DNA of 64,000 bases from Spirochaetota bacterium (GTDB taxonomy: Bacteria; Spirochaetota; UBA4802; UBA5550), in contig CAXXHB010000003.1 in the NCBI GenBank assembly GCA_963664815.2, positions 1,888,001-1,952,000 of the forward strand, read 5' to 3'. The notes beneath the pieces were generated by a model. That model saw only the letters and a list, made by a program, of their open reading frames with translations. It made no database searches and was not told the DNA's origin. The stretch's first letter is position 1, and each line of letters begins with the position of its first letter. Below, in pieces: positions 5,658-64,000 of the stretch. A program made the translations under genes and the position numbers.

Positions 5658-6749
5658 ATGAATATAAATAAATTATTTATAAAGATATTTATTATTTTAT
5701 TTATTTTTTTTATTATCAATCAGAGGATACTATCTGCAGAAAAAATCAGTGATCCCATTGATAATTCCTATATAATAAATAATCTTAAGATGGAAAGTGA
5801 CTCTGCGCCTGCATCCGGGGAACAGGATTCGGAAAGTGGTGAAATAATCTTTGATAACAGTTTTGATGATGATCTGGCTAATAAATCAAAATCAGATATT
5901 AAAAATATTTATAAAGACAGTTTAAAAAATAAAAAATCTTCTGATAAAAGACTTCATTTGAGTGAGTACCGGGTTAAAAGAAATGAAAACCTGTGGAAAA
6001 TAGCTAAAAAATCAGGAATGAATATCAATGAACTTATTGAAATAAACAAATTAAAAAAACCTGAATTATTAAAAGAAAATGATATTATTCTCATGCCATC
6101 AACAAAAGGTATCTTTTACAAAATAAAGAAGGGTGATACTCTTACAGGTATATCACAAAAATTTAAAACAGAAGTTGATATAATAGCGGAGCATAATAAT
6201 ATTGATGGACGAAGAATATTAATAGGAAAAAAAATATTTATTCCTGATGCTGTTGAAACAGTAAAATCTGGACCTGTAAAAAAGAAAGAGATTAAAACTG
6301 AAGCTGAAAGAATACCTCAGATAGCATCTGTCAAAAAAAATAATGAAAAAAACTCCGCTGAAAAAATATCTTTTAAATGGCCTATTCATGGACCGATAAC
6401 TTCAGGTTTCGGAATAAGAACGCATCCATTTTCAGGAGATAAAAGATTTCATTGCGGACTTGATATAGGAGCTGAAGAGGGAACGATAGTAAGATCGTCA
6501 GGGGATGGTTCCGTTATTTTCAGTGGCTGGAAAGAAGCTTATGGTAATATGATTGTTGTTTCTCATAAAAATAATTATATTACCATATATGCTCACAATA
6601 GTAAAAATCTTGTTGATGTGGACGAGAAGGTAGTAAAAGGTCAGAAAATTGCTCTTTCAGGTAAAACCGGTGCGGTAACAGGAGCGCATCTTCATTTTGA
6701 AATAAGAAAAGGAATTGTTCCTCTCAATCCATTAAGGATTTTAAAATAA
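5658..6749 (+). CDS. LysM-domain M23 metallopeptidase (cell wall)
   Basis: N-terminal TM, two LysM repeats (YRVKRNENLWKIA; YKIKKGDTLTGIS), and M23 motifs WPIHG, HCGLD and HLHFEI. Confidence 0.92.
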   Translation: MNINKLFIKIFIILFIFFIINQRILSAEKISDPIDNSYIINNLKMESDSAPASGEQDSESGEIIFDNSFDDDLANKSKSDIKNIYKDSLKNKKSSDKRLHLSEYRVKRNENLWKIAKKSGMNINELIEINKLKKPELLKENDIILMPSTKGIFYKIKKGDTLTGISQKFKTEVDIIAEHNNIDGRRILIGKKIFIPDAVETVKSGPVKKKEIKTEAERIPQIASVKKNNEKNSAEKISFKWPIHGPITSGFGIRTHPFSGDKRFHCGLDIGAEEGTIVRSSGDGSVIFSGWKEAYGNMIVVSHKNNYITIYAHNSKNLVDVDEKVVKGQKIALSGKTGAVTGAHLHFEIRKGIVPLNPLRILK

Positions 6750-7798
6750 TGATTAATAAATTATTACTTTCCGTCCTCTTTTTTATTTTAGGCAACGGGT
6801 TATTGTCTGCAAATATGAAATATGAAGAAGAAAGTACAAAAACGAAAATTTATTTTTCATACAATGACAAAACAGGTCAGGATGCCCTTGTAAAGGGTAA
6901 AATAATTTCGATATCCACAAGTGAAGTTTTACCGGAGAATGAATTATCAGGAGTATTACAGGAAAGAACTAAAGCAACTGTCAGGCTGATCGATAAAGAA
7001 GGAATTCATTCAGATAACATTCTTTATGTAATTGATCCGAACAATATAGTAGTTTCAAAACTCAATGTAAAATATTTATTTGATAATAAGACATTTGGAA
7101 ATATGCTGATAGGCTATGGCAATCTCAGATTAAGTAATGAAGGTTACAGAGTCGCTATGGCGGTTGTTGAAAATAAAACCGAAGATTCCTTTATATATAA
7201 ATCCAGAGGAGATTATTATTTCAGAACCGGCGATAAAGGTAAAGCTATTGCGGAATATAAAAAAGCAATTGAAATGGATAGAGGAGATCCTTCGCCAAGA
7301 TTGGCTCTGGGGATGATTTATTACCAGGATAAAATATACAATTTTGCTTTTGCAGAACTCTCAGCAGCATATAAAAGTATAAGCAGTATGTATGATAATG
7401 AAGACAGATTTATCCTGTTAAAATCACTGGCCGAGATCAGGGAGATTTATACATACAGCAATGAAGATACATTCCAGAATAAGGTAAGGTACAGGAAAGA
7501 AGGGATCAGATACTGCAAAGAAGCATTAATGATTCATAAAAATTCAATTGATGTAAATTATCTGCTTGGCCAATTTTATTACCGACAGATAGAAATAAAC
7601 AGTGATGATGATAAACTTGCTAAAGATATGTTTCTTAAAGTAATAAAACTAAACGAATTGCATGCTGGCGCCAATCTGCGGCTCGCAGAGCTTTACCTTA
7701 AACATAATAATAAGGAGAAAGGTCTTTTTTACGCAAAAAAAGCTTCAGAAGCAGATCCTTCAAATCAGAAAGCTCTTGAAATACTCAAACATGAATAG
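6749..7798 (+). CDS. Exported tetratricopeptide-repeat protein
   Basis: Signal peptide and TPR helices (RGDYYFRTGDKGKAIAEYKKAIEMD; YLLGQFYY; RLAELYL). Its start overlaps the upstream stop by 1 bp. Confidence 0.75.
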   Translation: MINKLLLSVLFFILGNGLLSANMKYEEESTKTKIYFSYNDKTGQDALVKGKIISISTSEVLPENELSGVLQERTKATVRLIDKEGIHSDNILYVIDPNNIVVSKLNVKYLFDNKTFGNMLIGYGNLRLSNEGYRVAMAVVENKTEDSFIYKSRGDYYFRTGDKGKAIAEYKKAIEMDRGDPSPRLALGMIYYQDKIYNFAFAELSAAYKSISSMYDNEDRFILLKSLAEIREIYTYSNEDTFQNKVRYRKEGIRYCKEALMIHKNSIDVNYLLGQFYYRQIEINSDDDKLAKDMFLKVIKLNELHAGANLRLAELYLKHNNKEKGLFYAKKASEADPSNQKALEILKHE

Positions 7799-7814
7799 TT
7801 AAAGCAATAGTTTC

Positions 7815-7843
7815 TTGACATTTTAATCTTCTGATGGTAGACA
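7815..7843 (+). promoter_or_regulatory. Putative sigma70 promoter (TTGACA-N17-TAGACA with TGn extension)
   Basis: Perfect -35 at 7815-7820, TG at 7835-7836 and a -10-like box at 7838-7843. This suggests the downstream gene starts at ATG 7864. Confidence 0.4.
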
Positions 7844-7863
7844 TTGAGACGGAAAGTCTTTAT

Positions 7864-8322
7864 ATGTTTATATCAATTTTATTAATTACAATTTCATTTA
7901 CATTTTGCCTCCAGATTCTTGTAATAATTCAATACCTTTTAACAAAGGGGGAAAGCTATTACAGAATTTTTCTGGGGACATTTGTAATTAATACAATTCT
8001 GATGATTATAGCCAGTATTTCCATACTGAAATATCCCTCCACTTTTGTTGCAATAGATATCAAATTTATATTATGGCTGATTTCAGGTTTTATTCTGATT
8101 TTTATTCTTTTCATAAAGATCAGTACTCTTCTGAAAATTTATAAAAGAACAAAAAATCCTGAATACTACACTATAAATTTTTTCGGGAAAAAAGTTTTCG
8201 CAAAAGGAATAATCAAACAGCATGAGTTTATTACATTGCTTCTGACGATGCCTTTTTTTCTTCTGGTTGGATCTTATTTTGTAGCAAGACTAATTAATAT
8301 TATACTTTATGGGCACCTTTGA
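7864..8322 (+). CDS. Hypothetical 4-TM membrane protein
   Basis: ORF 7834-8322 with four hydrophobic segments. Start moved to 7864 because of the promoter position. Confidence 0.65.
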   Translation: MFISILLITISFTFCLQILVIIQYLLTKGESYYRIFLGTFVINTILMIIASISILKYPSTFVAIDIKFILWLISGFILIFILFIKISTLLKIYKRTKNPEYYTINFFGKKVFAKGIIKQHEFITLLLTMPFFLLVGSYFVARLINIILYGHL

Positions 8323-9442
8323 TCTTTACAAGTTTACTTATTAATTCAATATGGTAAGTACATGGGAACATGTCAATCATTGTCAATTTCTCCAGTTTGT
8401 ATCCGTTTTTAAGAAAATCAACAATATCTCTTGAATAAGTAGATGGGTTACATGATACATATACAATTATATCCGGATTCATCGAATTAATTGTCCATCT
8501 TCCTTTTTTTGAGATCCCATTTCTTGGAGGATCAACAATTACAGTTTTAGGATTTATTCTCACCGGATTTATGTCAGATTCGGAAACAGGAAAGAACTTA
8601 AGATTATTACAATTATTTAACAAAGAATTATCAATAGCAAATTTTATGCTTGTATGATCAATATCATATCCTGTACCATGTGACGATATTTTTGAAAGAG
8701 GAATTGTTAAAAAACCGCAACCAGCACATATATCTGTAAATTCATCATTTTCTGTTAATTCACTGTAATCACATACAAGGTCTGACATTTTTTTTCTCAG
8801 AAATCTGTTACTCTGAAAAAAACTGTTAACATTTCTTCTGAAATAGTAATCACCGGTTTTTTCTTCAATAACAGAATATTTATCCTGATTATTAAATATA
8901 TTCCCTTTCCAGTCTTCGGCTAATTTTAAATCACCGGCAACATCACGTGTGTTCAATAATTCTATTCCATTAATCAGCTTATCAGAAATCAGAAGGCATC
9001 CTGAAGCAGGAAATGGAACAATTCTATTTGAGTTTTTACTGTGAAAACCTTTTATGATGCCGTCACATTTTATATTACAATGACTTCTATAATGATATCT
9101 TTCATCAGATATAATATTTATATTAACCTTATCTTCAATAAGGGCGATTCTTTTTAAATGGTCTCTGATTATTTTTATTTTAGATTCTATTTCATCTGAA
9201 TATTCTAAATTAAGATAGGAGCATCCGCCGCAAATTTCGAAATTACAGCATAATGGATTTATTCTTTTATCAGACGGCTTTAATACTTCTTTACATACAG
9301 CAAAAGAAAAACTTTTTCTTTCATCATAAACTTCTATCGCCATCTCATCACCGGGGATTGCATTATTCACAAAAACGGCTTTCCCATTTATTCTTCCAAC
9401 TCCGTATCCTCCATAGGCTATATTATCAATTTTTATTTTCAT
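8300..9442 (-). CDS. rlmD: 23S rRNA (uracil-C5)-methyltransferase, RlmD/TrmA family
   Basis: TRAM N-terminus (IAYGGYGVGR), Fe-S motif C..FEICGGC, SFFQSN, VDPPRNG, YVSCNP (catalytic Cys) and DMFPCTYHIE. Confidence 0.9.
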   Translation of the reverse strand: MKIKIDNIAYGGYGVGRINGKAVFVNNAIPGDEMAIEVYDERKSFSFAVCKEVLKPSDKRINPLCCNFEICGGCSYLNLEYSDEIESKIKIIRDHLKRIALIEDKVNINIISDERYHYRSHCNIKCDGIIKGFHSKNSNRIVPFPASGCLLISDKLINGIELLNTRDVAGDLKLAEDWKGNIFNNQDKYSVIEEKTGDYYFRRNVNSFFQSNRFLRKKMSDLVCDYSELTENDEFTDICAGCGFLTIPLSKISSHGTGYDIDHTSIKFAIDNSLLNNCNNLKFFPVSESDINPVRINPKTVIVDPPRNGISKKGRWTINSMNPDIIVYVSCNPSTYSRDIVDFLKNGYKLEKLTMIDMFPCTYHIELISKLVKIKGAHKV

Positions 9443-57722: not shown

Positions 57723-59044
57723 AAAGCATTCTCTCCAACACCTATAATTCCGCTCAATTTTGCCAGAGTCAATAAATAACCGTATTTTGCTTCGAGAAAA
57801 CCGATATCCGCATTTATAACGCTTAATTCGGCATCCTGCAGTTCAAGCTGAGATCCGCCTCCGTTCTCATAACTTCTCTGTGCCAGCAGAAGGTGCCTCT
57901 GGGCATTTTTTGTGATAAGGTGAGATATTTCAATCTGCTTTTTTATCTCTTCAATACTTTTAAAGCTATCCCTGATCTTGTTTTTTGTTTCAATTATAAG
58001 TTCCTTTTCTTTATATGTGATTTTATTAAAATCAGTTACTGCAGAATCGACTGAAGCGGATATTCTCCCACCTGTATAAATTGGTAATGCGGCTACTATC
58101 AACCCGTAAAAAGTAGGAGTCCAGTTCTTGAAATTTAAATTTTCAGATGCCTGAGCTGTGCCATATATTTTTTCCTCTGAATATCCGAAGCCAAGAGAAA
58201 GATCAACCGTTGGATAATGCAAAGCATCACATTGGGACACCTGCAATCTGGCAGTTCTTTTTTGCAGTGTTATTATTCTTATCTGAGGACTATATACCTC
58301 AGCCATTTTATATAATTCATCGAGAGAACATTTAATTTCAGGTAATGTATCGATATCTTTGGGATTTATGGATAAAGATTCTGTCTCTTCAAGCCCCATT
58401 GAATGGAAAAGGCTGAGTTTGGTTTTTCTCTCATCGTTTCTTGCTTTTTCAAGTTGAAGCTGTGAATCGGCCACATCAACTTCAGCTTTACTCACATCAA
58501 GTATCGGCCTTGAACCCTGCTCAAATAGCTGCTTTGCGAGATCGGATTTTTTTTTATATTTCTTATTTATCTCTTCCCTTATAATCAATATATTTTTTGA
58601 AAGAAGATACCCGTAATATGAATTTTTAACTTCCAGTATAATATTGTTTTTAGTTTCCTGGTTTTTTAACTTTGAAATATCAAGACCGGTTTTGGCAGAT
58701 TCCTCAACATATTCTTTCTTTGCATCATAGAGATTGTATGATATGGTTATGCCTGCAAAAAGGCCAATATCCGTATCTTTACCCGGTATTTTAACTTTTG
58801 AATTTGTTGCCGTACTTTCTTTATCAGTTTGAATAGTCTGGAGTTGACCGTTAACAATGATACTTCTCTGTGATTTGGCAATACGGTAATCAGCCGCACT
58901 TTTTTTGTTGTCTTCAATCGAGAGAAAAATATCTGGATGATTCTGGAGTGCAATATTAATGCATTCGTCAAGATTAACATTACGCTCTTCCGGGAAAGAA
59001 ATTGCCGGTATTAAAAGGATGAAAATAAGAAAGATTTTTTTCAT
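57704..59044 (-). CDS. TolC-family outer-membrane efflux protein
   Basis: Signal peptide from ATG 59044 (MKKIFLIF), LDECINIALQNHP, YPTVDL, PIYTGG and YENG...LEL.DA motifs. Confidence 0.9.
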   Translation of the reverse strand: MKKIFLIFILLIPAISFPEERNVNLDECINIALQNHPDIFLSIEDNKKSAADYRIAKSQRSIIVNGQLQTIQTDKESTATNSKVKIPGKDTDIGLFAGITISYNLYDAKKEYVEESAKTGLDISKLKNQETKNNIILEVKNSYYGYLLSKNILIIREEINKKYKKKSDLAKQLFEQGSRPILDVSKAEVDVADSQLQLEKARNDERKTKLSLFHSMGLEETESLSINPKDIDTLPEIKCSLDELYKMAEVYSPQIRIITLQKRTARLQVSQCDALHYPTVDLSLGFGYSEEKIYGTAQASENLNFKNWTPTFYGLIVAALPIYTGGRISASVDSAVTDFNKITYKEKELIIETKNKIRDSFKSIEEIKKQIEISHLITKNAQRHLLLAQRSYENGGGSQLELQDAELSVINADIGFLEAKYGYLLTLAKLSGIIGVGENALCKDQD

Positions 59045-59463
59045 GAAAAATATATAATCCCATCTATATAAATAAAAAATAAATAAAAAATGCATTAAAA
59101 ACTATATTCAGTTATAATACCCGGATAAAAAATGTTTATAAAAAGATTATTTTTACCCGCTGATTACAACAGGAAAATCAAAACTTTTTTATAATAAAAA
59201 CCAGGGATTTAATGCTGTGCAATATTATTAATTAAAATATACTATATATGTCAAGACAATAAAAGTGTATGATTATTTCATCACATCCGAGAATACTCAT
59301 TTTACTGCTTTACTATTTGAACGCTTTTATCTTCATAAAGGTAAAACAATAAAAACTTTATAAACAGATTATTATTTAAGAATATTTAAGAATACATGTA
59401 GAGTCATTAAAAAATCAGAACTGTTACATTAAAAAAATAAAAAAAATAATTATTAAAAAAACA

Positions 59464-59492
59464 TTGACAGTTAAATTATATAAAAATATTAG
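59464..59492 (+). promoter_or_regulatory. Putative sigma70 promoter of the tRNA pair (TTGACA-N17-TATTAG)
   Basis: Perfect -35 at 59464-59469 and a -10-like box 15 bp before tRNA-Thr. Confidence 0.55.
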
Positions 59493-59507
59493 TTACATCG
59501 TTGTTTT

Positions 59508-59580
59508 GCTAGCGTAGCTCAATCGGTAGAGCAGCTGATTTGTAATCAGCTTGTTGGGGGTTCAATTCCTCTCGCTAGCT
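59508..59580 (+). tRNA. tRNA-Thr(TGT)
   Basis: Acceptor stem GCTAGCG/CGCTAGC, D arm GCTC/GAGC, anticodon arm GCTGA-TTTGTAA-TCAGC, T loop TTCAATT. CCA is not encoded. Confidence 0.96.
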
Positions 59581-59585
59581 AACAT

Positions 59586-59667
59586 GGTGAGGTTCCCGAG
59601 CGGCCAAAGGGAACAGACTGTAAATCTGTCGTCAACGACTTCGAAGGTTCGAATCCTTCCCTCACCA
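59586..59667 (+). tRNA. tRNA-Tyr(GTA)
   Basis: Acceptor stem GGTGAGG/CCTCACC, anticodon arm ACAGA-CTGTAAA-TCTGT, long variable arm GTC-AAC-GAC, T arm GAAGG-TTCGAAT-CCTTC. Confidence 0.97.
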
Positions 59668-59698
59668 AAAAGTCCTGATTTAATCAGGACTTTTTTTT
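59667..59698 (+). terminator. Rho-independent terminator after tRNA-Tyr
   Basis: AAAAAGTCCTGAT-TTA-ATCAGGACTTTTTTTT perfect hairpin with T-tract. Confidence 0.9.
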
Positions 59699-59766
59699 AT
59701 TAATTTTAAATTGTTCTTCTATTTAAATTAAATACTAAAATGAATAATTGTTTTTAAACGAAAAGT

Positions 59767-60189
59767 ATGAAAAGAAAAACTGTTATAAAAACAATAACAT
59801 TGATTATCGTGCTGATTGCTTATATTATTATAAGGGCCGATGCATGGAGTCTGCTTCTTTTTTCAAAGAATACATCGGGACGGATTGTAAAGGTTGATAA
59901 AATAATTTATGATCCTCACACAACGACATTGAAGGCTAAGGTCGGATATACCTTCAGTAATGAAGAGGGAAAAGTCTATAGTGGTTCCGGAGACCGGGTA
60001 TTTATGGAGGGAGAAAATACAAGTAATCTTACATGGTTGTTAAATACCGGTATTGAAATTGTCTACTTAATAAACGATCCTGAAATTAACGGGATCAGCG
60101 GGTGTGAGTATGCAGTTCTTTTTCCGCTGATACTTATACCTTTTGTAATTGCTATGGAATTATTCATTCCCAGTCATTCACGTTCATAA
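59767..60189 (+). CDS. DUF3592-like membrane protein
   Basis: TM, then G.IV....V.Y.F...G..Y....I.Y...DP beta domain, then a second TM. Confidence 0.6.
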   Translation: MKRKTVIKTITLIIVLIAYIIIRADAWSLLLFSKNTSGRIVKVDKIIYDPHTTTLKAKVGYTFSNEEGKVYSGSGDRVFMEGENTSNLTWLLNTGIEIVYLINDPEINGISGCEYAVLFPLILIPFVIAMELFIPSHSRS

Positions 60190-60255
60190 AATAAAAAATT
60201 TTATAACGTTAAGGCAGAGTAATCCTGTCTATATTAAATTATATTTCAATCATTC

Positions 60256-60283
60256 TTGACAAAAAATAACCTGCACATATCAG
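60256..60283 (+). promoter_or_regulatory. Putative sigma70 promoter of the cytochrome/MetVF cluster
   Basis: TTGACA at 60256-60261, TATCAG 16 bp downstream, and a GGAG RBS before ATG 60324. Confidence 0.4.
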
Positions 60284-60323
60284 TTAATATCAGATTTTCA
60301 GAATCACTCCGGAGAAATAATTA

Positions 60324-61025
60324 ATGCATCTTCCAGTCTTCGATCTTTTTGATTTTTTAAGAGGCCCGGGATTTATTATTTCAGTCACCGTTTTTTTTTC
60401 AGGATTATTCTGGCGTACAATTTTAATGATTCGGGCTACTCACAATTTAGAAAGAAACAGAATTTTGACTGGGAATACTGTTCCTGATCTGTATATATCG
60501 GCAAATACAGATTCTAAAAAAAAGTTACCGTCTTTAATCGGAATTAAAATGAGAAATACAATTTTCTTCTCACACCCAATTATGGGTGTAGTCAGCCTTA
60601 TTTTTCACTTATTGCTCTTCATAACTCCCCTGTTTCTCTCTGCGCATAACATCATTGCAGATATGACAATAGGTTTCAGCCTATCCACATTACCCGAACA
60701 ACTGACTGATATTTTTACTGTAATACTTATTGCTGCCTGTGGATTTTTTATGGCAAGACGGATTTTAATTTCTCAAGTGAGAATTATTACCACTCTTCGT
60801 GATTACCTTATTCTTTTTATTGTTATGATGCCGTTAATTAGCGGATTTATGGCATATCATCATTTTTTTAATTATCGCATTATTGTTTATGCCCATATGA
60901 TAATAGGAGAAACGGCTATTATTGTAGCCCCATTTACAAGTCTTGCTCATATGCCGTTTGCTATCTTTTCTCGATTTTTTATTGATGGAGAATATACATT
61001 TTTATCAGGAAGTCGAAGATGGTAA
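60324..61025 (+). CDS. NarI/HmcE/DsrM-family membrane diheme cytochrome b subunit
   Basis: About five TMs, N-terminal F.RGP, and candidate heme-b His ligands in IFH...L.AH and YAH.I.GE...PFTSLAH. Also RR.....R..T...DY and SGFMA. Confidence 0.85.
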   Translation: MHLPVFDLFDFLRGPGFIISVTVFFSGLFWRTILMIRATHNLERNRILTGNTVPDLYISANTDSKKKLPSLIGIKMRNTIFFSHPIMGVVSLIFHLLLFITPLFLSAHNIIADMTIGFSLSTLPEQLTDIFTVILIAACGFFMARRILISQVRIITTLRDYLILFIVMMPLISGFMAYHHFFNYRIIVYAHMIIGETAIIVAPFTSLAHMPFAIFSRFFIDGEYTFLSGSRRW

Positions 61026-61092
61026 AATGTATACGTCAGCTTAGTTAAGCCGGAAACTCCATTTTACAGAGACATATAACAGGATAAACATA

Positions 61093-61512
61093 ATGAAAAT
61101 AATGAACAGAATGGACAGGATAAATAAAGATAATACCGAAAAAAACATGATAAAAATGATAATTGATAAGAAAAAAGATATGATAAAATTATCCATGTCG
61201 GCATGTATTCATTGCTCAATCTGTTCAGATAGCTGTTTTAAATATACTTCAAACAGGAAAGATCCGACTTATACCCCATCTTATAAAGCTATTAATTCAA
61301 TTGGTCGTATATATAATAAAAATGGAAAATTGTCTGATGAAGAATACCTTGAGATCAGCGATTTAATCTGGAATAAATGTGTTCTATGCATGAGGTGTTA
61401 CTGTCCTCTCGGAATAAATATACCATCGCTGATTGCAACTGCGCGAAACATATGCAGAGAAAAGGGATTTTACCGCAAATATGACAATTTTGAGGATATT
61501 TCCGGTTTATGA
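61093..61512 (+). CDS. 4Fe-4S dicluster protein (HdrC / HmcF / TmcB N-terminal type)
   Basis: CIHCSICSDSC and CVLCMRCYCPLGINIP motifs; no CCG domain. Confidence 0.85.
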   Translation: MKIMNRMDRINKDNTEKNMIKMIIDKKKDMIKLSMSACIHCSICSDSCFKYTSNRKDPTYTPSYKAINSIGRIYNKNGKLSDEEYLEISDLIWNKCVLCMRCYCPLGINIPSLIATARNICREKGFYRKYDNFEDISGL

Positions 61513-61889
61513 AAAAATACGATATAATATTTATAATTTTTTTACTTATATTACCGGTATTACTTATTGCACAGGTTGAGGTTTTAATCATTGATAATCC
61601 CCTCTTTAAATCCCGAAGCCGCTCACCGGTGAAATTTAATCACTTCAGGCATATGTCTATAGATGGTGCTGCCTGTACTGACTGTCATCACAGGTACGAA
61701 AAAGGCCGAAACATCCTTGACATTGCGGAACTGACTAATGAAAACAGATCGGTTTACTGCAGCAGCTGTCATTCGAAGGCATCAGATCTTGAAAAGGCAT
61801 ACCACCGATTATGCATAAAGTGTCATGAATCAGCTGTTAAAAATAAAAAAACAGCCGGACCCAGACTCTGCGGTGAATGCCATGAATAA
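61509..61889 (+). CDS. Secreted tetraheme cytochrome c3 (class III)
   Basis: Signal peptide, four CxxCH motifs (CTDCH, CSSCH, CIKCH, CGECH), distal His ligands (FNHFRH, CHH, AYH), and GP before the last heme. Confidence 0.92.
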   Translation: MKKYDIIFIIFLLILPVLLIAQVEVLIIDNPLFKSRSRSPVKFNHFRHMSIDGAACTDCHHRYEKGRNILDIAELTNENRSVYCSSCHSKASDLEKAYHRLCIKCHESAVKNKKTAGPRLCGECHE

Positions 61890-61907
61890 ATTTTTCCGGA
61901 GAAATCT

Positions 61908-62585
61908 ATGATCAAAGCAAGGCAGAAACCACTTGAGGAAATTTATAATCTTATAAAAAGTTATTCACGGATACTCTGTACAGGTTGCGGAGGATGTACC
62001 TCGGTTTGTCTTGCGGGTGGTCAACGTGAAACTCTTTTACTTAAAGAGGAATTATCTGAATTATCACGGGATCAGGGAAAAAAAATTAATCTGTCGGTTT
62101 TTGTAATAGAACGCCAGTGTAATCCGGAATATATTTCAGATATTGAAGACATGGTGAATGATTACGACTGCATTTTATCAACGGCATGCGGAATCGGGGT
62201 ACAGTTTCTTGCAGAGAAATATAGTTCAAAACCTGTATTTCCGGCACTTAATACAATGTTTATCGGGCTTGACCGGAGCACGGGATTATATCAGGAGAGA
62301 TGCCGTACCTGTGGCGACTGCCGGCTTGGATTAACCGGGGGTATATGTACTGTAACATGTTGTTCCAAGAATCTTTTTAACGGACCTTGCGGAGGAACAA
62401 ACCTTGACGGCAGCTGTGAAGTTGACAGAAATATTCCCTGTGCATGGAACCTGATATATGAAAGGTTAAAATCCCAGAATCGCCTGGAAAGCATTCTTTT
62501 AAATCATCCACCAATGGAATGGAAAAGTAATGGGCCTGCAACGATGATACAGTCCGGATATGAAAAAAGATATACAGTTAAATAA
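61908..62585 (+). CDS. metV: MetV: Fe-S/Zn subunit of methylene-THF reductase (MTHFR C-terminal domain protein)
   Basis: GCGGCTSVCLAGG, ERQC, ACGIGVQ, ERCRTCGDC.LG..GGIC, CSK.LFNGPCGG and CEV....CAW motifs. Confidence 0.92.
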   Translation: MIKARQKPLEEIYNLIKSYSRILCTGCGGCTSVCLAGGQRETLLLKEELSELSRDQGKKINLSVFVIERQCNPEYISDIEDMVNDYDCILSTACGIGVQFLAEKYSSKPVFPALNTMFIGLDRSTGLYQERCRTCGDCRLGLTGGICTVTCCSKNLFNGPCGGTNLDGSCEVDRNIPCAWNLIYERLKSQNRLESILLNHPPMEWKSNGPATMIQSGYEKRYTVK

Positions 62586-62761
62586 TAAAATTTCAGTAAT
62601 ATTTTTTAACGTATATTTTATTGCAAAATATACATTTATTTCTCAACACCGAAGGCGGCTGTGAGAATAGAGTATTTCATGTTATTAAGAGTTAATGCAT
62701 ATTTATTGACAAATCATATTGAAACAAAGGTGCAATCGGATTTTAAGGAGAAACAGATATA

Positions 62762-63688
62762 ATGAATTCTGGGAGTAATCTTGAGAAAGTATTGAATGCC
62801 GGATATTTTTCAGTAACATCAGAGCTTGGGCCTCCGAAAGGAACAGATATTTCATCAATTAAAAAAAAAGGTGAATTTCTTCGTGGACACGTTGACGCTG
62901 TTAATGTAACCGACTGCCAGACTGCCGTTGTAAGGATTTCAAGTATAGCAACCTCTGTAATACTTATGCAGATGGAGCTGGAACCTGTTATGCAGATGAC
63001 CTGCCGCGACAGAAACCGGATAGCAATACAAAGCGACATACTCGGTGCATCAGCTCTCGGAATAAAAAACATGCTTGCACTTTCAGGAGATCACCAGAGT
63101 TTCGGAAACCAGAAAAATGCGAAGGGTGTTTTCGATATAGATTCAATGCAGATGTTGTCACTGGTAAAAAGAATGCGCGATGAAAAGAAGATAATGAGTA
63201 TAGATGAATCCATACATGGTGATCTACCTATGTTTATTGGCGCTGTCGCAAATCCATTTGCTCCGCCTGTCGAATTCCGGGCCATGCACCTGAAGAAGAA
63301 AATTGATGCCGGTGCTGATTTTATCCAGACTCAATGCATATTTGATATTGATAAATTCCGTGAATGGATGAAGATAGTATGTGACATGGGACTGGACAGG
63401 AAGTGCTATATATTAGCCGGTTTAACTCCATTGAAATCACTGCGGATGGCGGAGTATATGGCGTCCAGTGTTCCAGGAATCTATATTCCTGATACATTAA
63501 TCAAACGTATGTCCGGTGTTCCGAAAGATAATGCGGCTGACGAGGGTATAAAAATTTTCTGCGAACAGGTCGAACAGTTAAAGGAAATTAAAGGTGTATC
63601 CGGTGTTCATATAATGCCGATCGAATGGGAAAGCAGAATACCTGAAATTACCGAAAGAGCCGGGCTGCTTCCACGGCCGGTGATATAA
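62762..63688 (+). CDS. metF: Methylenetetrahydrofolate reductase catalytic subunit (MetVF type)
   Basis: ELGPPKG, AVNVTD, QMTCRDRNR, L.LSGDH, KKIDAGADFIQTQ and GVHIM motifs. Confidence 0.93.
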   Translation: MNSGSNLEKVLNAGYFSVTSELGPPKGTDISSIKKKGEFLRGHVDAVNVTDCQTAVVRISSIATSVILMQMELEPVMQMTCRDRNRIAIQSDILGASALGIKNMLALSGDHQSFGNQKNAKGVFDIDSMQMLSLVKRMRDEKKIMSIDESIHGDLPMFIGAVANPFAPPVEFRAMHLKKKIDAGADFIQTQCIFDIDKFREWMKIVCDMGLDRKCYILAGLTPLKSLRMAEYMASSVPGIYIPDTLIKRMSGVPKDNAADEGIKIFCEQVEQLKEIKGVSGVHIMPIEWESRIPEITERAGLLPRPVI

Positions 63689-63689
63689 C

Positions 63690-63706
63690 CGGAATAAACT
63701 ATTCCG
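63690..63706 (+). terminator. Small hairpin directly after the metF stop
   Basis: CGGAATA-AAC-TATTCCG; no clear T-tract follows. Confidence 0.3.
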
Positions 63707-63900
63707 TGACAATCTTCGTCATTGAATAGTTTATTATCATATTTATTAAATGTACATATCGAGCTATATTATTTAACAATCCTGCTGCACAATTAACTCA
63801 ATACAATTTAAATTTATATTAATAATTAATAATACCTTGTTTTACCGGAATGATTTATTATATTTATTAAAATAAAAGTCATTACTATTCAGAGGAAAAA

Positions 63901-64000
63901 ATGAAATCACTTAAGTATAAAACAATGATTCTCATTGCGCTTACAGTATTCATCATATCTGTAATTTTTGGTTTCATATCCTATATGCAGATAAAAAAAA
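63901..64000 (+). CDS. 5' end of a membrane sensor-type protein (MCP or histidine kinase-like), runs off the window
   Basis: GAGG RBS; MKSLKYKTMILIALTVFIISVIFGFISYMQIKK is a basic N-terminus plus TM1, typical of chemoreceptors and sensors. Confidence 0.5.
   Translation, partial: MKSLKYKTMILIALTVFIISVIFGFISYMQIKK

Follow-up and report, generated by a model that had tools for sequence, protein, structure and literature searches.

The window analysed here is a stretch of 64,000 nucleotides of DNA from a Spirochaetota bacterium (GenBank assembly GCA_963664815.2, contig CAXXHB010000003.1, positions 1,888,001 to 1,952,000 of the forward strand). Its positions 60324-63688 hold a cluster in which the two subunits of a MetVF-type methylenetetrahydrofolate (methylene-THF) reductase (MTHFR) are encoded next to a membrane cytochrome b, a short iron–sulfur (Fe-S) protein and a secreted cytochrome c3. 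An earlier note on this DNA had described five co-oriented genes here; all five open reading frames (ORFs) were recovered on the plus strand, and the protein families assigned in that note hold in Pfam and NCBIfam comparisons. The features are displayed below by position in the window, with protein lengths in amino acids (aa).

60324..61025, plus strand: TmcC/HmcE-like integral-membrane cytochrome b, predicted membrane anchor (233 aa)
61111..61512, plus strand: short 2x[4Fe-4S] protein, predicted cytoplasmic connector (133 aa from Met7 of a 139-aa ORF that opens at 61093)
61509..61889, plus strand: TmcA-like secreted tetrahaem cytochrome c3 (126 aa)
61908..62585, plus strand: MetV, Fe-S/Zn subunit of a MetVF-type MTHFR (225 aa)
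62586..62761, no strand: spacer between metV and metF (176 bases)
62762..63688, plus strand: MetF, catalytic MTHFR subunit of the acetogen/MetVF type (308 aa)

The genes are closely packed. In the raw sequence, an ATGA at 61509-61512 is common to the stop of the Fe-S gene and the start of the c3 gene, and 18 bases (61890-61907) separate c3 from metV, both as reported in the earlier note; the gap between the cytochrome b ORF (60324-61025) and the Fe-S ORF (61093-61512) amounts to 67 bases. No terminator-like site is predicted inside 60324-63688. A search of positions 59000-64000 against Rfam (E ≤1) returned two tRNAs and two sub-threshold chance matches only, and the gaps of the cluster gave no match to a riboswitch or attenuator. 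The metV–metF spacer, to which the earlier note did not refer, is not conserved in length, the distance between the two genes being 0-126 bases in loci L001-L004.

The cytochrome b matches positions 3-212 of the 218-position NCBIfam TmcC model (NF045723; 6.6e-43, 146.7 bits, curated cut-off 240) and the HmcE model at 2.4e-38, under its equivalog cut-off. It is weakly related to DsrM and QmoC in the same database and to the NarI gamma family of Pfam (PF02665; E 0.0079, 16.3 bits, cut-off 22.9). A profile built from 16 homologues matches the E. coli NarI chains at 6.6e-5 across 37 residues, and NarI was the only solved structure found by sequence. Grouped hydropathy peaks delimit about five membrane segments, and the His residues at positions 95, 108, 191 and 209 do not vary among 16 sequences. 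This four-His pattern fits two bis-His haems b, and the pairs His95/108 and His191/209 are presumed here to resemble the haem ligands of NarI.

The short Fe-S protein is a Fer4_8/Fer4_17 dicluster domain (Fer4_8 at 4.4e-8 in Pfam), and it matches only positions 9-137, the N-terminal third, of the 430-position TmcB model. It also resembles the N-terminus of HmcF and of DsrK (DsrK at 1.3e-7). It does not belong to TmcB: it is 133-139 aa long versus about 430 and is devoid of CCG domains, and its NCBIfam match range includes no catalytic domain of its own. The search for solved structures gave a chance match only. Eight Cys, arranged as CxxCxxCxxxC and CxxCxxCxC, are invariant in the homologue alignment, and since homologues begin at Met7 the true start is probably at 61111, for a product of 133 aa. 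Homologues of the protein fall into 198 clusters, and those listed (120) measure 120-153 aa. Across 151 sampled Desulfobacterales genomes the scores of the protein are bimodal: 27 genomes give 148-185 bits in ORFs of 120-220 aa, and one further genome gives a partial match of 127.5 bits at a contig edge, versus at most 111 bits for the ORFs of TmcB/HmcF size (about 290-550 aa). These long forms are included in the tally of 119/151 genomes obtained at E ≤1e-20. As judged by length and score, the short protein is a stable family of about 130 aa, an orthologue group distinct from full-length TmcB/HmcF, and not the decayed fragment that the earlier note had considered fatal to its own proposal.

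The c3 scores 45.3 bits against PF02085 (cut-off 22.9), which places it in the class III cytochromes c, and 77.3 bits (8.6e-22) against TmcA (NF045722; cut-off 114). Its CxxCH motifs start at residues 56, 84, 102 and 121; these four motifs and His45, His48, His61 and His99 are invariant in 15 sequences. The N-terminus is hydrophobic, as judged from the sequence without a signal-peptide predictor. MetV belongs to PF12225, the family of the MetV C-terminal domain (9.6e-33, 112.2 bits, cut-off 23), and has an N-terminal CxxCxxCxxxC motif and many invariant Cys; no solved structure was found for it by sequence. MetF belongs to the MTHFR family PF02219 (2.6e-43, 148.9 bits, cut-off 24) over positions 2-287 of 287; among its matches in NCBIfam, the MTHFR half of PRK08645 ranks first (1.5e-64).

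Conservation of the cluster was followed in two scans. The first one, with MetV as query, returned 12 loci. The four closest (70-78% identity) contain all five genes in identical order, and the other eight contain MetV with or without MetF and none of the Tmc-like genes. The second one, with an alignment of the Fe-S protein, returned 228 loci, the best 80 of which were examined by tblastn with the five proteins of the window; a neighbour was counted when found on the same strand within 3 kb of the Fe-S gene, with identity floors of 30% for c3 and 45% for MetF. Under these rules the Fe-S gene is accompanied by the cytochrome b in 78/80 loci, by MetV in 77/80, by c3 in 63/80 and by MetF in 52/80. 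All misses of cytochrome b (two) and of MetV (three) occur where the Fe-S gene lies at, or close to, the end of a contig. The loci show at least six gene orders, distributed as follows.

TmcC-FeS-c3-MetV-MetF: 20 loci
TmcC-FeS-c3-MetV: 14 loci
c3-MetV-TmcC-FeS-MetF: 12 loci
TmcC-FeS-MetV-MetF: 9 loci
MetF-TmcC-FeS-c3-MetV: 8 loci
c3-MetV-TmcC-FeS: 8 loci
TmcC-FeS-MetV: 3 loci
orders seen once: 6 loci

By their record titles, the loci come from Spirochaetota and from Desulfobacterales and their relatives. According to the labels of metagenome-assembled genomes (MAGs), the carriers include Desulforapulum (D. autotrophicum, L062), Desulfotignum, Desulfobacula, Desulfococcus and Desulfosarcina, genera with cultured members. 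The linkage is far beyond chance, recurring in 77-78 of the 80 loci examined. It is therefore not unique to this genome, which the earlier note had named as a reason to abandon its proposal, and the search for metV/metF near c3 and cytochrome b genes elsewhere, which it had recommended, finds them in two phyla. The interleaved order c3-MetV-TmcC-FeS-MetF implies that the Met genes cannot be set apart as a block from the Tmc-like ones. A joint function is argued for chiefly by co-localization that has outlasted repeated reshuffling, including arrangements in which the cytochrome b and Fe-S genes stand between MetV and MetF. When the flanking ORFs were clustered all against all and antisense shadows of core genes were set aside, no family was present in more than 15 of 81 loci, so that the module itself appears as the conserved unit. 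The annotated flanking families are PAS sensors, methyl-accepting chemotaxis proteins, a major facilitator superfamily transporter, histidine kinases and Pyr_redox_2.

Two variations were seen around the module. One or two Pyr_redox_2 genes (about 390-480 aa) lie near it in six Desulfobacterales loci (L092, at 5924-7366 and 7764-9104, L050, L055, L057, L072 and L073) and may provide a further redox partner. In some spirochaete loci a six-gene module results from an extra small c3-like gene, with 23-31% identity to the c3 of the window, just 5′ of the cytochrome b gene (L027:3955-4248, L040:3929-4126, L044:3962-4189, and also L002 and L003).

MetV sequences linked to the module form a group of their own. 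In a quick maximum-likelihood tree of 84 rows (78 module-linked and six unlinked), the 78 linked rows constitute one clade, with a support of 99 in the Shimodaira–Hasegawa-like approximate likelihood ratio test (SH-aLRT). It contains a subclade of 31 rows (SH-aLRT 99), 26 of them labelled Spirochaetota, one Syntrophus and four unlabelled, and a subclade of 45 rows (SH-aLRT 92), mainly Thermodesulfobacteriota. A C-terminal motif occurs in 74/76 linked MetV ORFs versus 0/6 unlinked ones; it may be an interface or merely a clade marker. Scores for the predicted complex of MetV with the Fe-S protein were 0.21 and 0.27, the mark being 0.32, with controls not folded, and weigh neither way. Locus L003, labelled ‘uncultured Syntrophus sp.’, has a MetV that nests in the Spirochaetota clade beside L027 (SH-aLRT 95) and shows the spirochaete gene order, which points to misbinning, mislabelling or a recent transfer.

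The genomic context of the module in relatives points to the Wood–Ljungdahl pathway. Among 401 sampled Spirochaetota genomes, the Fe-S protein is present in 19 (the genome of the window included), all in the window's own order, with 13/39 genomes in family f1, 4/5 in f4 and 1/9 in f6. A CdhC-domain match occurs in 62/101 genomes of that order. When the two tables were compared by eye for the 19 carriers, six had a match of AcsB length (E ≤1e-67, ORFs of at least 735 aa), eight had weak CdhC matches only, in ORFs of 251-366 aa that are presumably not AcsB, and five had none. In G243 and G208, two genomes of the window's family (genus g4), the module lies inside a complete Wood–Ljungdahl cluster directly 3′ of acsE, in the order fhs-folD-acsD-cooS-acsB-acsC-acsE-[TmcC-FeS-c3-MetV-MetF]-DUF3786-radical SAM, and the start of TmcC overlaps the stop of acsE. 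Such embedding was found in just 2 of 84 loci checked, and L052 additionally has an AcsE-like gene upstream. Three Desulfobacterales carriers were tested, and all three have an AcsB-length match elsewhere in the genome. Short ORFs of about 237-370 aa with a weak CdhC match (1e-7 to 1e-16, above the Pfam cut-off) are seen in many genomes of the order, for example at G328:C4:154974-155396 and G310:C1:3514239-3514640, and are far too short for AcsB.

The genome to which the window belongs (G000; 5.2 Mb, three contigs, 96.2% complete) encodes possible periplasmic and quinone partners. An operon on the minus strand (G000:C3:2961377-2964826, L020:6378-9826) comprises, in this order, a c3 of 128 aa, a maturation protease, a small subunit with a twin-arginine translocation (Tat) signal and the large subunit of a [NiFe] hydrogenase, with an FmdE-family gene upstream. 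The small subunit contains the RRxFLK twin-arginine motif, and the hydrogenase is predicted to be Tat-exported and of the periplasmic type. CcmF/CcmC-like genes are present, as are two MqnA/MqnD-family genes of the futalosine pathway for menaquinone. Two of the partners that the earlier note had suggested looking for, a periplasmic hydrogenase (here with an adjacent c3) and menaquinone synthesis, are thus both accounted for. The Fe-S protein is kept in 4/4 genomes of genus g1 searched (G000 and three others). The ratios of nonsynonymous to synonymous substitution rates (dN/dS) of the module genes versus their closest relatives are 0.04-0.23 where computable (0.04-0.07 for MetF), many comparisons being saturated and those of the c3 and Fe-S genes mostly not computable. 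By these ratios the module is kept under purifying selection without acetyl-CoA synthase.

Other genes of this genome touch on folate and methyl chemistry. The third homologue of MTHFR, 305 aa long and matched by PF02219 with 105.6 bits (G000:C3:1443979-1452557, L019:7979-16557), lies between an MvhD-like gene and three genes with glutamate-synthase domains, followed by an HdrC-like gene and HdrB (CCG). With amtB, a P-II gene and a sigma-54 activator 5′ of it, this unusual MetF-like/Hdr/glutamate-synthase set stands in a nitrogen-assimilation context. About 2.3 kb from the canonical metF, on the minus strand, an ArsR-family regulator is found with a 390-aa protein and a 96-aa ferredoxin-like protein (G000:C3:3894268-3896079, L117:6269-8080). 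The former matches CdhD in part and combines a WCAAGK-type stretch with a C-terminal half that is hydrophobic; the latter contains CxxCxxCxxxC twice and a CC at its C-terminus, and its gene shares an ATGA with the preceding one. By these motifs the pair resembles hgcAB (mercury methylation). A weak AcsC-like tblastn match near the canonical metF was traced to the HgcA-like gene and does not belong to the Wood–Ljungdahl pathway.

The best family matches of the cytochrome b, c3 and Fe-S protein of the cluster are TmcC/HmcE, TmcA and the N-terminal dicluster domain of TmcB/HmcF, that is, components of Tmc (TmcABCD) and Hmc of Desulfovibrio, in which electron transfer between periplasmic c3 and the cytoplasm is likewise presumed. 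Unlike in these complexes, the Fe-S subunit of the window is free of CCG domains, and the disulfide-reducing half is replaced by MetVF; across the 81 loci, in which no search aimed at TmcD was made, no sixth gene family is conserved with the module. As judged by family matches, DsrMK, HdrED and HmeCD are comparable: they combine a dihaem cytochrome b of the NarI family, to which the cytochrome b of the window appears related, with a cytoplasmic Fe-S subunit that has the same N-terminal dicluster domain, but these modules carry a CCG site and act on thiol/disulfide substrates, whereas the present one is CCG-free and tied to a folate enzyme.

On the MTHFR side, published accounts describe four types (MetF alone, MetVF, MetVF-RnfC2 and MetVF-HdrCBA-MvhD), none with a membrane subunit (PMC9430772, PMC8760232), and the earlier note's list of characterized MetVF enzymes agrees with these papers. 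The Hdr-type enzyme (type IV) of Moorella thermoacetica and Sporomusa ovata resembles the cluster in having a MetVF core beside extra Fe-S genes, in or beside the acs cluster, with a partner that includes a two-[4Fe-4S] HdrC-like protein and for which a membrane link has been proposed (PMC9430772, PMC8578096). It differs in that the cluster of the window gives no matches to HdrA, HdrB/CCG or MvhD and possesses a cytochrome b and usually a c3, so that the membrane link is encoded and not hypothetical; the MvhD/HdrCB genes found elsewhere in the genome surround a different MTHFR homologue. In PMC9430772, an electron chain from H2 to methylene-THF, a ‘third way of energy conservation’, is shown in S. 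ovata membranes and the link of MetVF to the membrane is attributed to Hdr/MvhD. That chain (periplasmic hydrogenase, membrane cytochrome b, possibly quinone, MetVF as terminal reductase, scalar protons) is alike in proposed function, but there the cytochrome b is part of the hydrogenase, and metVF is not accompanied by genes for a cytochrome b or c3 of its own. In a review, genomes are said to give no sign of a membrane localization of MTHFR, a membrane-integral partner being still required (PMC8578096). In syntrophic acetate oxidizers, metF adjoins hydrogenase genes; the haloalkaliphilic ones have a second metF linked to hydrogenase, once with a c3-containing small subunit, and the linkage is read there as oxidation of methyl-THF coupled to H2 formation. 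Their partners are hydrogenase subunits, and a MetV/TmcC linkage is not described for them (PMC6295475, PMC10608574). The genome paper on Desulfobacterium autotrophicum HRM2 speaks of two ‘TmcBCA’ clusters and, in an abbreviation for a figure, of ‘MetF-ABC’, with no link between them in the accessible text (PMC2702500). The literature searched, subscription journals not included, gave no report of metV or metF together with genes for TmcC, HmcE, cytochromes b of the NarI type or c3. The concept of a membrane-coupled MTHFR is old, and what appears new is the encoded architecture.

Altogether, the five genes quite probably specify a single MTHFR that is anchored in the membrane and connects the methylene-/methyl-THF couple with periplasmic c3, menaquinone or both. 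Through linkage and genomic context, comparative genomics supports the single transmembrane electron-transfer unit of an undescribed MTHFR type that had been postulated in the earlier note. We infer the formation of the complex, its cofactors, the direction of electron flow and the coupling to energy conservation as follows. MetF (flavin and folate site) and MetV (Fe-S/Zn) would form the cytoplasmic catalytic core, which the Fe-S protein of about 133 aa, a TmcB/HmcF N-terminal domain with two clusters and without CCG, would join to the membrane subunit, a five-helix, four-His (dihaem) cytochrome b of the TmcC/NarI type with the tetrahaem c3 on the periplasmic face. MetVF would thus stand in for the CCG (disulfide-reducing) half of a Tmc/DsrMK-type complex. 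Electrons would pass along c3, the dihaem cytochrome b, the two [4Fe-4S] clusters, the clusters of MetV and the flavin of MetF to methylene-THF, or in the opposite direction, and the wire would couple the methylene-/methyl-THF pair (about −200 mV) to the c3 pool or, where c3 is missing, probably to menaquinone.

The relevant potentials, as given in PMC9430772 and PMC8578096, are −414 mV for H2, −200 mV for methylene-THF and −74 mV for menaquinone. Inward flow from periplasmic H2 via the [NiFe] hydrogenase, c3, cytochrome b and Fe-S protein to MetVF would be exergonic, would make methylene-THF a respiratory acceptor and could generate proton-motive force via a redox loop. Outward flow, in which methyl-THF oxidation feeds the c3/quinone pool with the help of the membrane potential, would be the direction needed by complete-oxidizing sulfate reducers that oxidize acetyl-CoA.

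Several observations weigh against this reading. At the locus, the 176-base metV–metF spacer and the gap of 67-85 bases 5′ of the Fe-S gene leave room for internal promoters, and all three Tmc-like proteins score under the NCBIfam equivalog cut-offs. Of nine sequencing runs listed for this DNA, six contain it in whole or in part, and none is recorded as RNA. Among the loci, only 80 of which were examined, MetF is not adjacent in 28/80 and c3 was not found in 17/80, with MetV directly 3′ of the Fe-S gene in 12 of these; given this variable presence of MetF and c3, the five-gene form is one variant of a TmcC-FeS-MetV core. The outgroup of the MetV tree consists of just six unlinked sequences, so small and long-branched a set that the monophyly of linked MetV is limited to the comparison with these six rows. 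In the window's own genome, AcsB, CooS and AcsD were not found by tblastn with the pathway proteins of G243 at E ≤1e-5, a search in which Fhs, two FolD copies and a MetH-like region were detected. This genome has no MttB and a single GcvT. It has no short corrinoid protein either, its B12-binding matches being MetH and eight ORFs of 459-650 aa only, the latter taken to be radical-SAM-type enzymes; a second Pterin_bind match falls in an ORF of MetH length. The check for Wood–Ljungdahl or methyltransferase genes advised in the earlier note has thus turned out negative for acetyl-CoA synthase, MttB and a corrinoid methyltransferase system. A separate canonical MetF (323 bits) is encoded elsewhere, which makes three MTHFR homologues in total. 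This leaves no visible catabolic pathway to produce or consume methyl-THF, and any bioenergetic role of the module in this very organism is tentative.

Three other explanations have to be compared with the wired complex. The same complex could work mainly on the menaquinone pool, with a cytochrome b that is quinone-reactive as in NarI or DsrM and c3 as an optional accessory, which is judged possible though rather unlikely. In its favour, no c3 was found in 12 loci that have MetV directly 3′ of the Fe-S gene (nine Spirochaetota loci of the TmcC-FeS-MetV-MetF order and three Desulfohalobiaceae), which argues that the cytochrome b can also use another partner, most simply the quinone pool. The relationship of the cytochrome b family to NarI and, weakly, to DsrM and QmoC points the same way, as do the MqnA/MqnD-family genes and the proposals (PMC9430772, PMC8578096, PMC6895022) of a quinone step between hydrogenase and MTHFR in S. 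ovata and of menaquinone in Thermacetogenium phaeum. However, c3 is present in 63/80 loci and its gene here overlaps the Fe-S gene, the cytochrome b is most similar to TmcC and HmcE, which are subunits of c3-linked complexes, its sequence reveals no quinone site, and menaquinol (−74 mV) is a poor donor to an acceptor at −200 mV (PMC8578096). Because the potential of menaquinol is too high, a mainly menaquinone-linked complex would fit the oxidative direction only. It is far less credible that two independent systems happen to be neighbours, namely a soluble MetVF that depends on ferredoxin and a minimal Tmc-like conduit to a different acceptor in the cytoplasm. Purified MetVF is indeed soluble and uses reduced ferredoxin in vitro (PMC8760232, PMC9430772), and the spacer 5′ of metF and the 28 loci with a non-adjacent MetF are compatible with such independence. 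Yet MetV is adjacent in 77/80 loci, across two phyla and at least six orders including interleaved ones, the Fe-S protein has no catalytic domain to offer, module-linked MetV sequences group in a separate clade and nearly all have a C-terminal motif not seen in the six unlinked ones, and in the Wood–Ljungdahl cluster of relatives the module occupies the slot after acsE.

The remaining explanation concerns this genus, where the module could be the leftover of a lost Wood–Ljungdahl pathway, or an anabolic supply of methyl-THF driven by H2 and c3, without a respiratory role. Besides the absence of AcsB, CooS and AcsD matches, CdhC gave no match in the window's own genome, nor in G322, G394 and G420 of its genus, and only 3.7e-8 in a 259-aa ORF of the one-contig G310; genus g1 (four genomes) thus has no CdhC or a weak match in a 259-aa ORF only. 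No methyl-donor methyltransferase system was found in the genome and MetH is present, as is the hgcAB-like pair, which would draw on methyl-THF. These facts are offset by five intact ORFs with invariant cofactor ligands, by dN/dS values of 0.04-0.23 and by the retention of the Fe-S protein in all four genus g1 genomes searched. Moreover, biosynthesis is already served by the canonical MetF, so that anabolism alone hardly accounts for another enzyme wired to the membrane, and a leftover or purely anabolic module is considered improbable.

Immediately 5′ of the cluster, the window contains two tRNA genes (59508-59580 and 59586-59667), followed by a strong terminator-like hairpin (59667-59695). 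Next, and directly upstream of the cytochrome b gene, comes a membrane-like ORF of 140 aa (59767-60189), without Pfam or NCBIfam match, a counterpart of which is absent from L001-L004.

Membrane coupling of the MTHFR step of the Wood–Ljungdahl pathway has been debated for decades, and the cluster is direct genomic evidence for a membrane partner. It also offers a candidate acceptor for the −200 mV electrons of methyl-THF in complete-oxidizing sulfate reducers, to our knowledge an open question in these organisms. As carriers belong to genera with cultured members, by their MAG labels, the hypothesis is directly testable. Whether the module deserves the rank of a fifth MTHFR class, i.e. a respiratory enzyme in which a dedicated Fe-S connector permanently wires the MetVF core to a dihaem cytochrome b of its own and a periplasmic c3, is evenly balanced at present. 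If it does, it would provide what has long been sought, an encoded link in the membrane that ties chemiosmotic energy conservation to the MTHFR step. In Wood–Ljungdahl spirochaetes, methylene-THF would then be the terminal acceptor of an H2-driven redox loop, and in complete-oxidizing Desulfobacterales methyl-THF would feed the c3/menaquinone pool. In the acetyl-CoA-synthase-free genus of the window, the module would stand for a stand-alone ‘methylene-THF respiration’ or a novel methyl metabolism.

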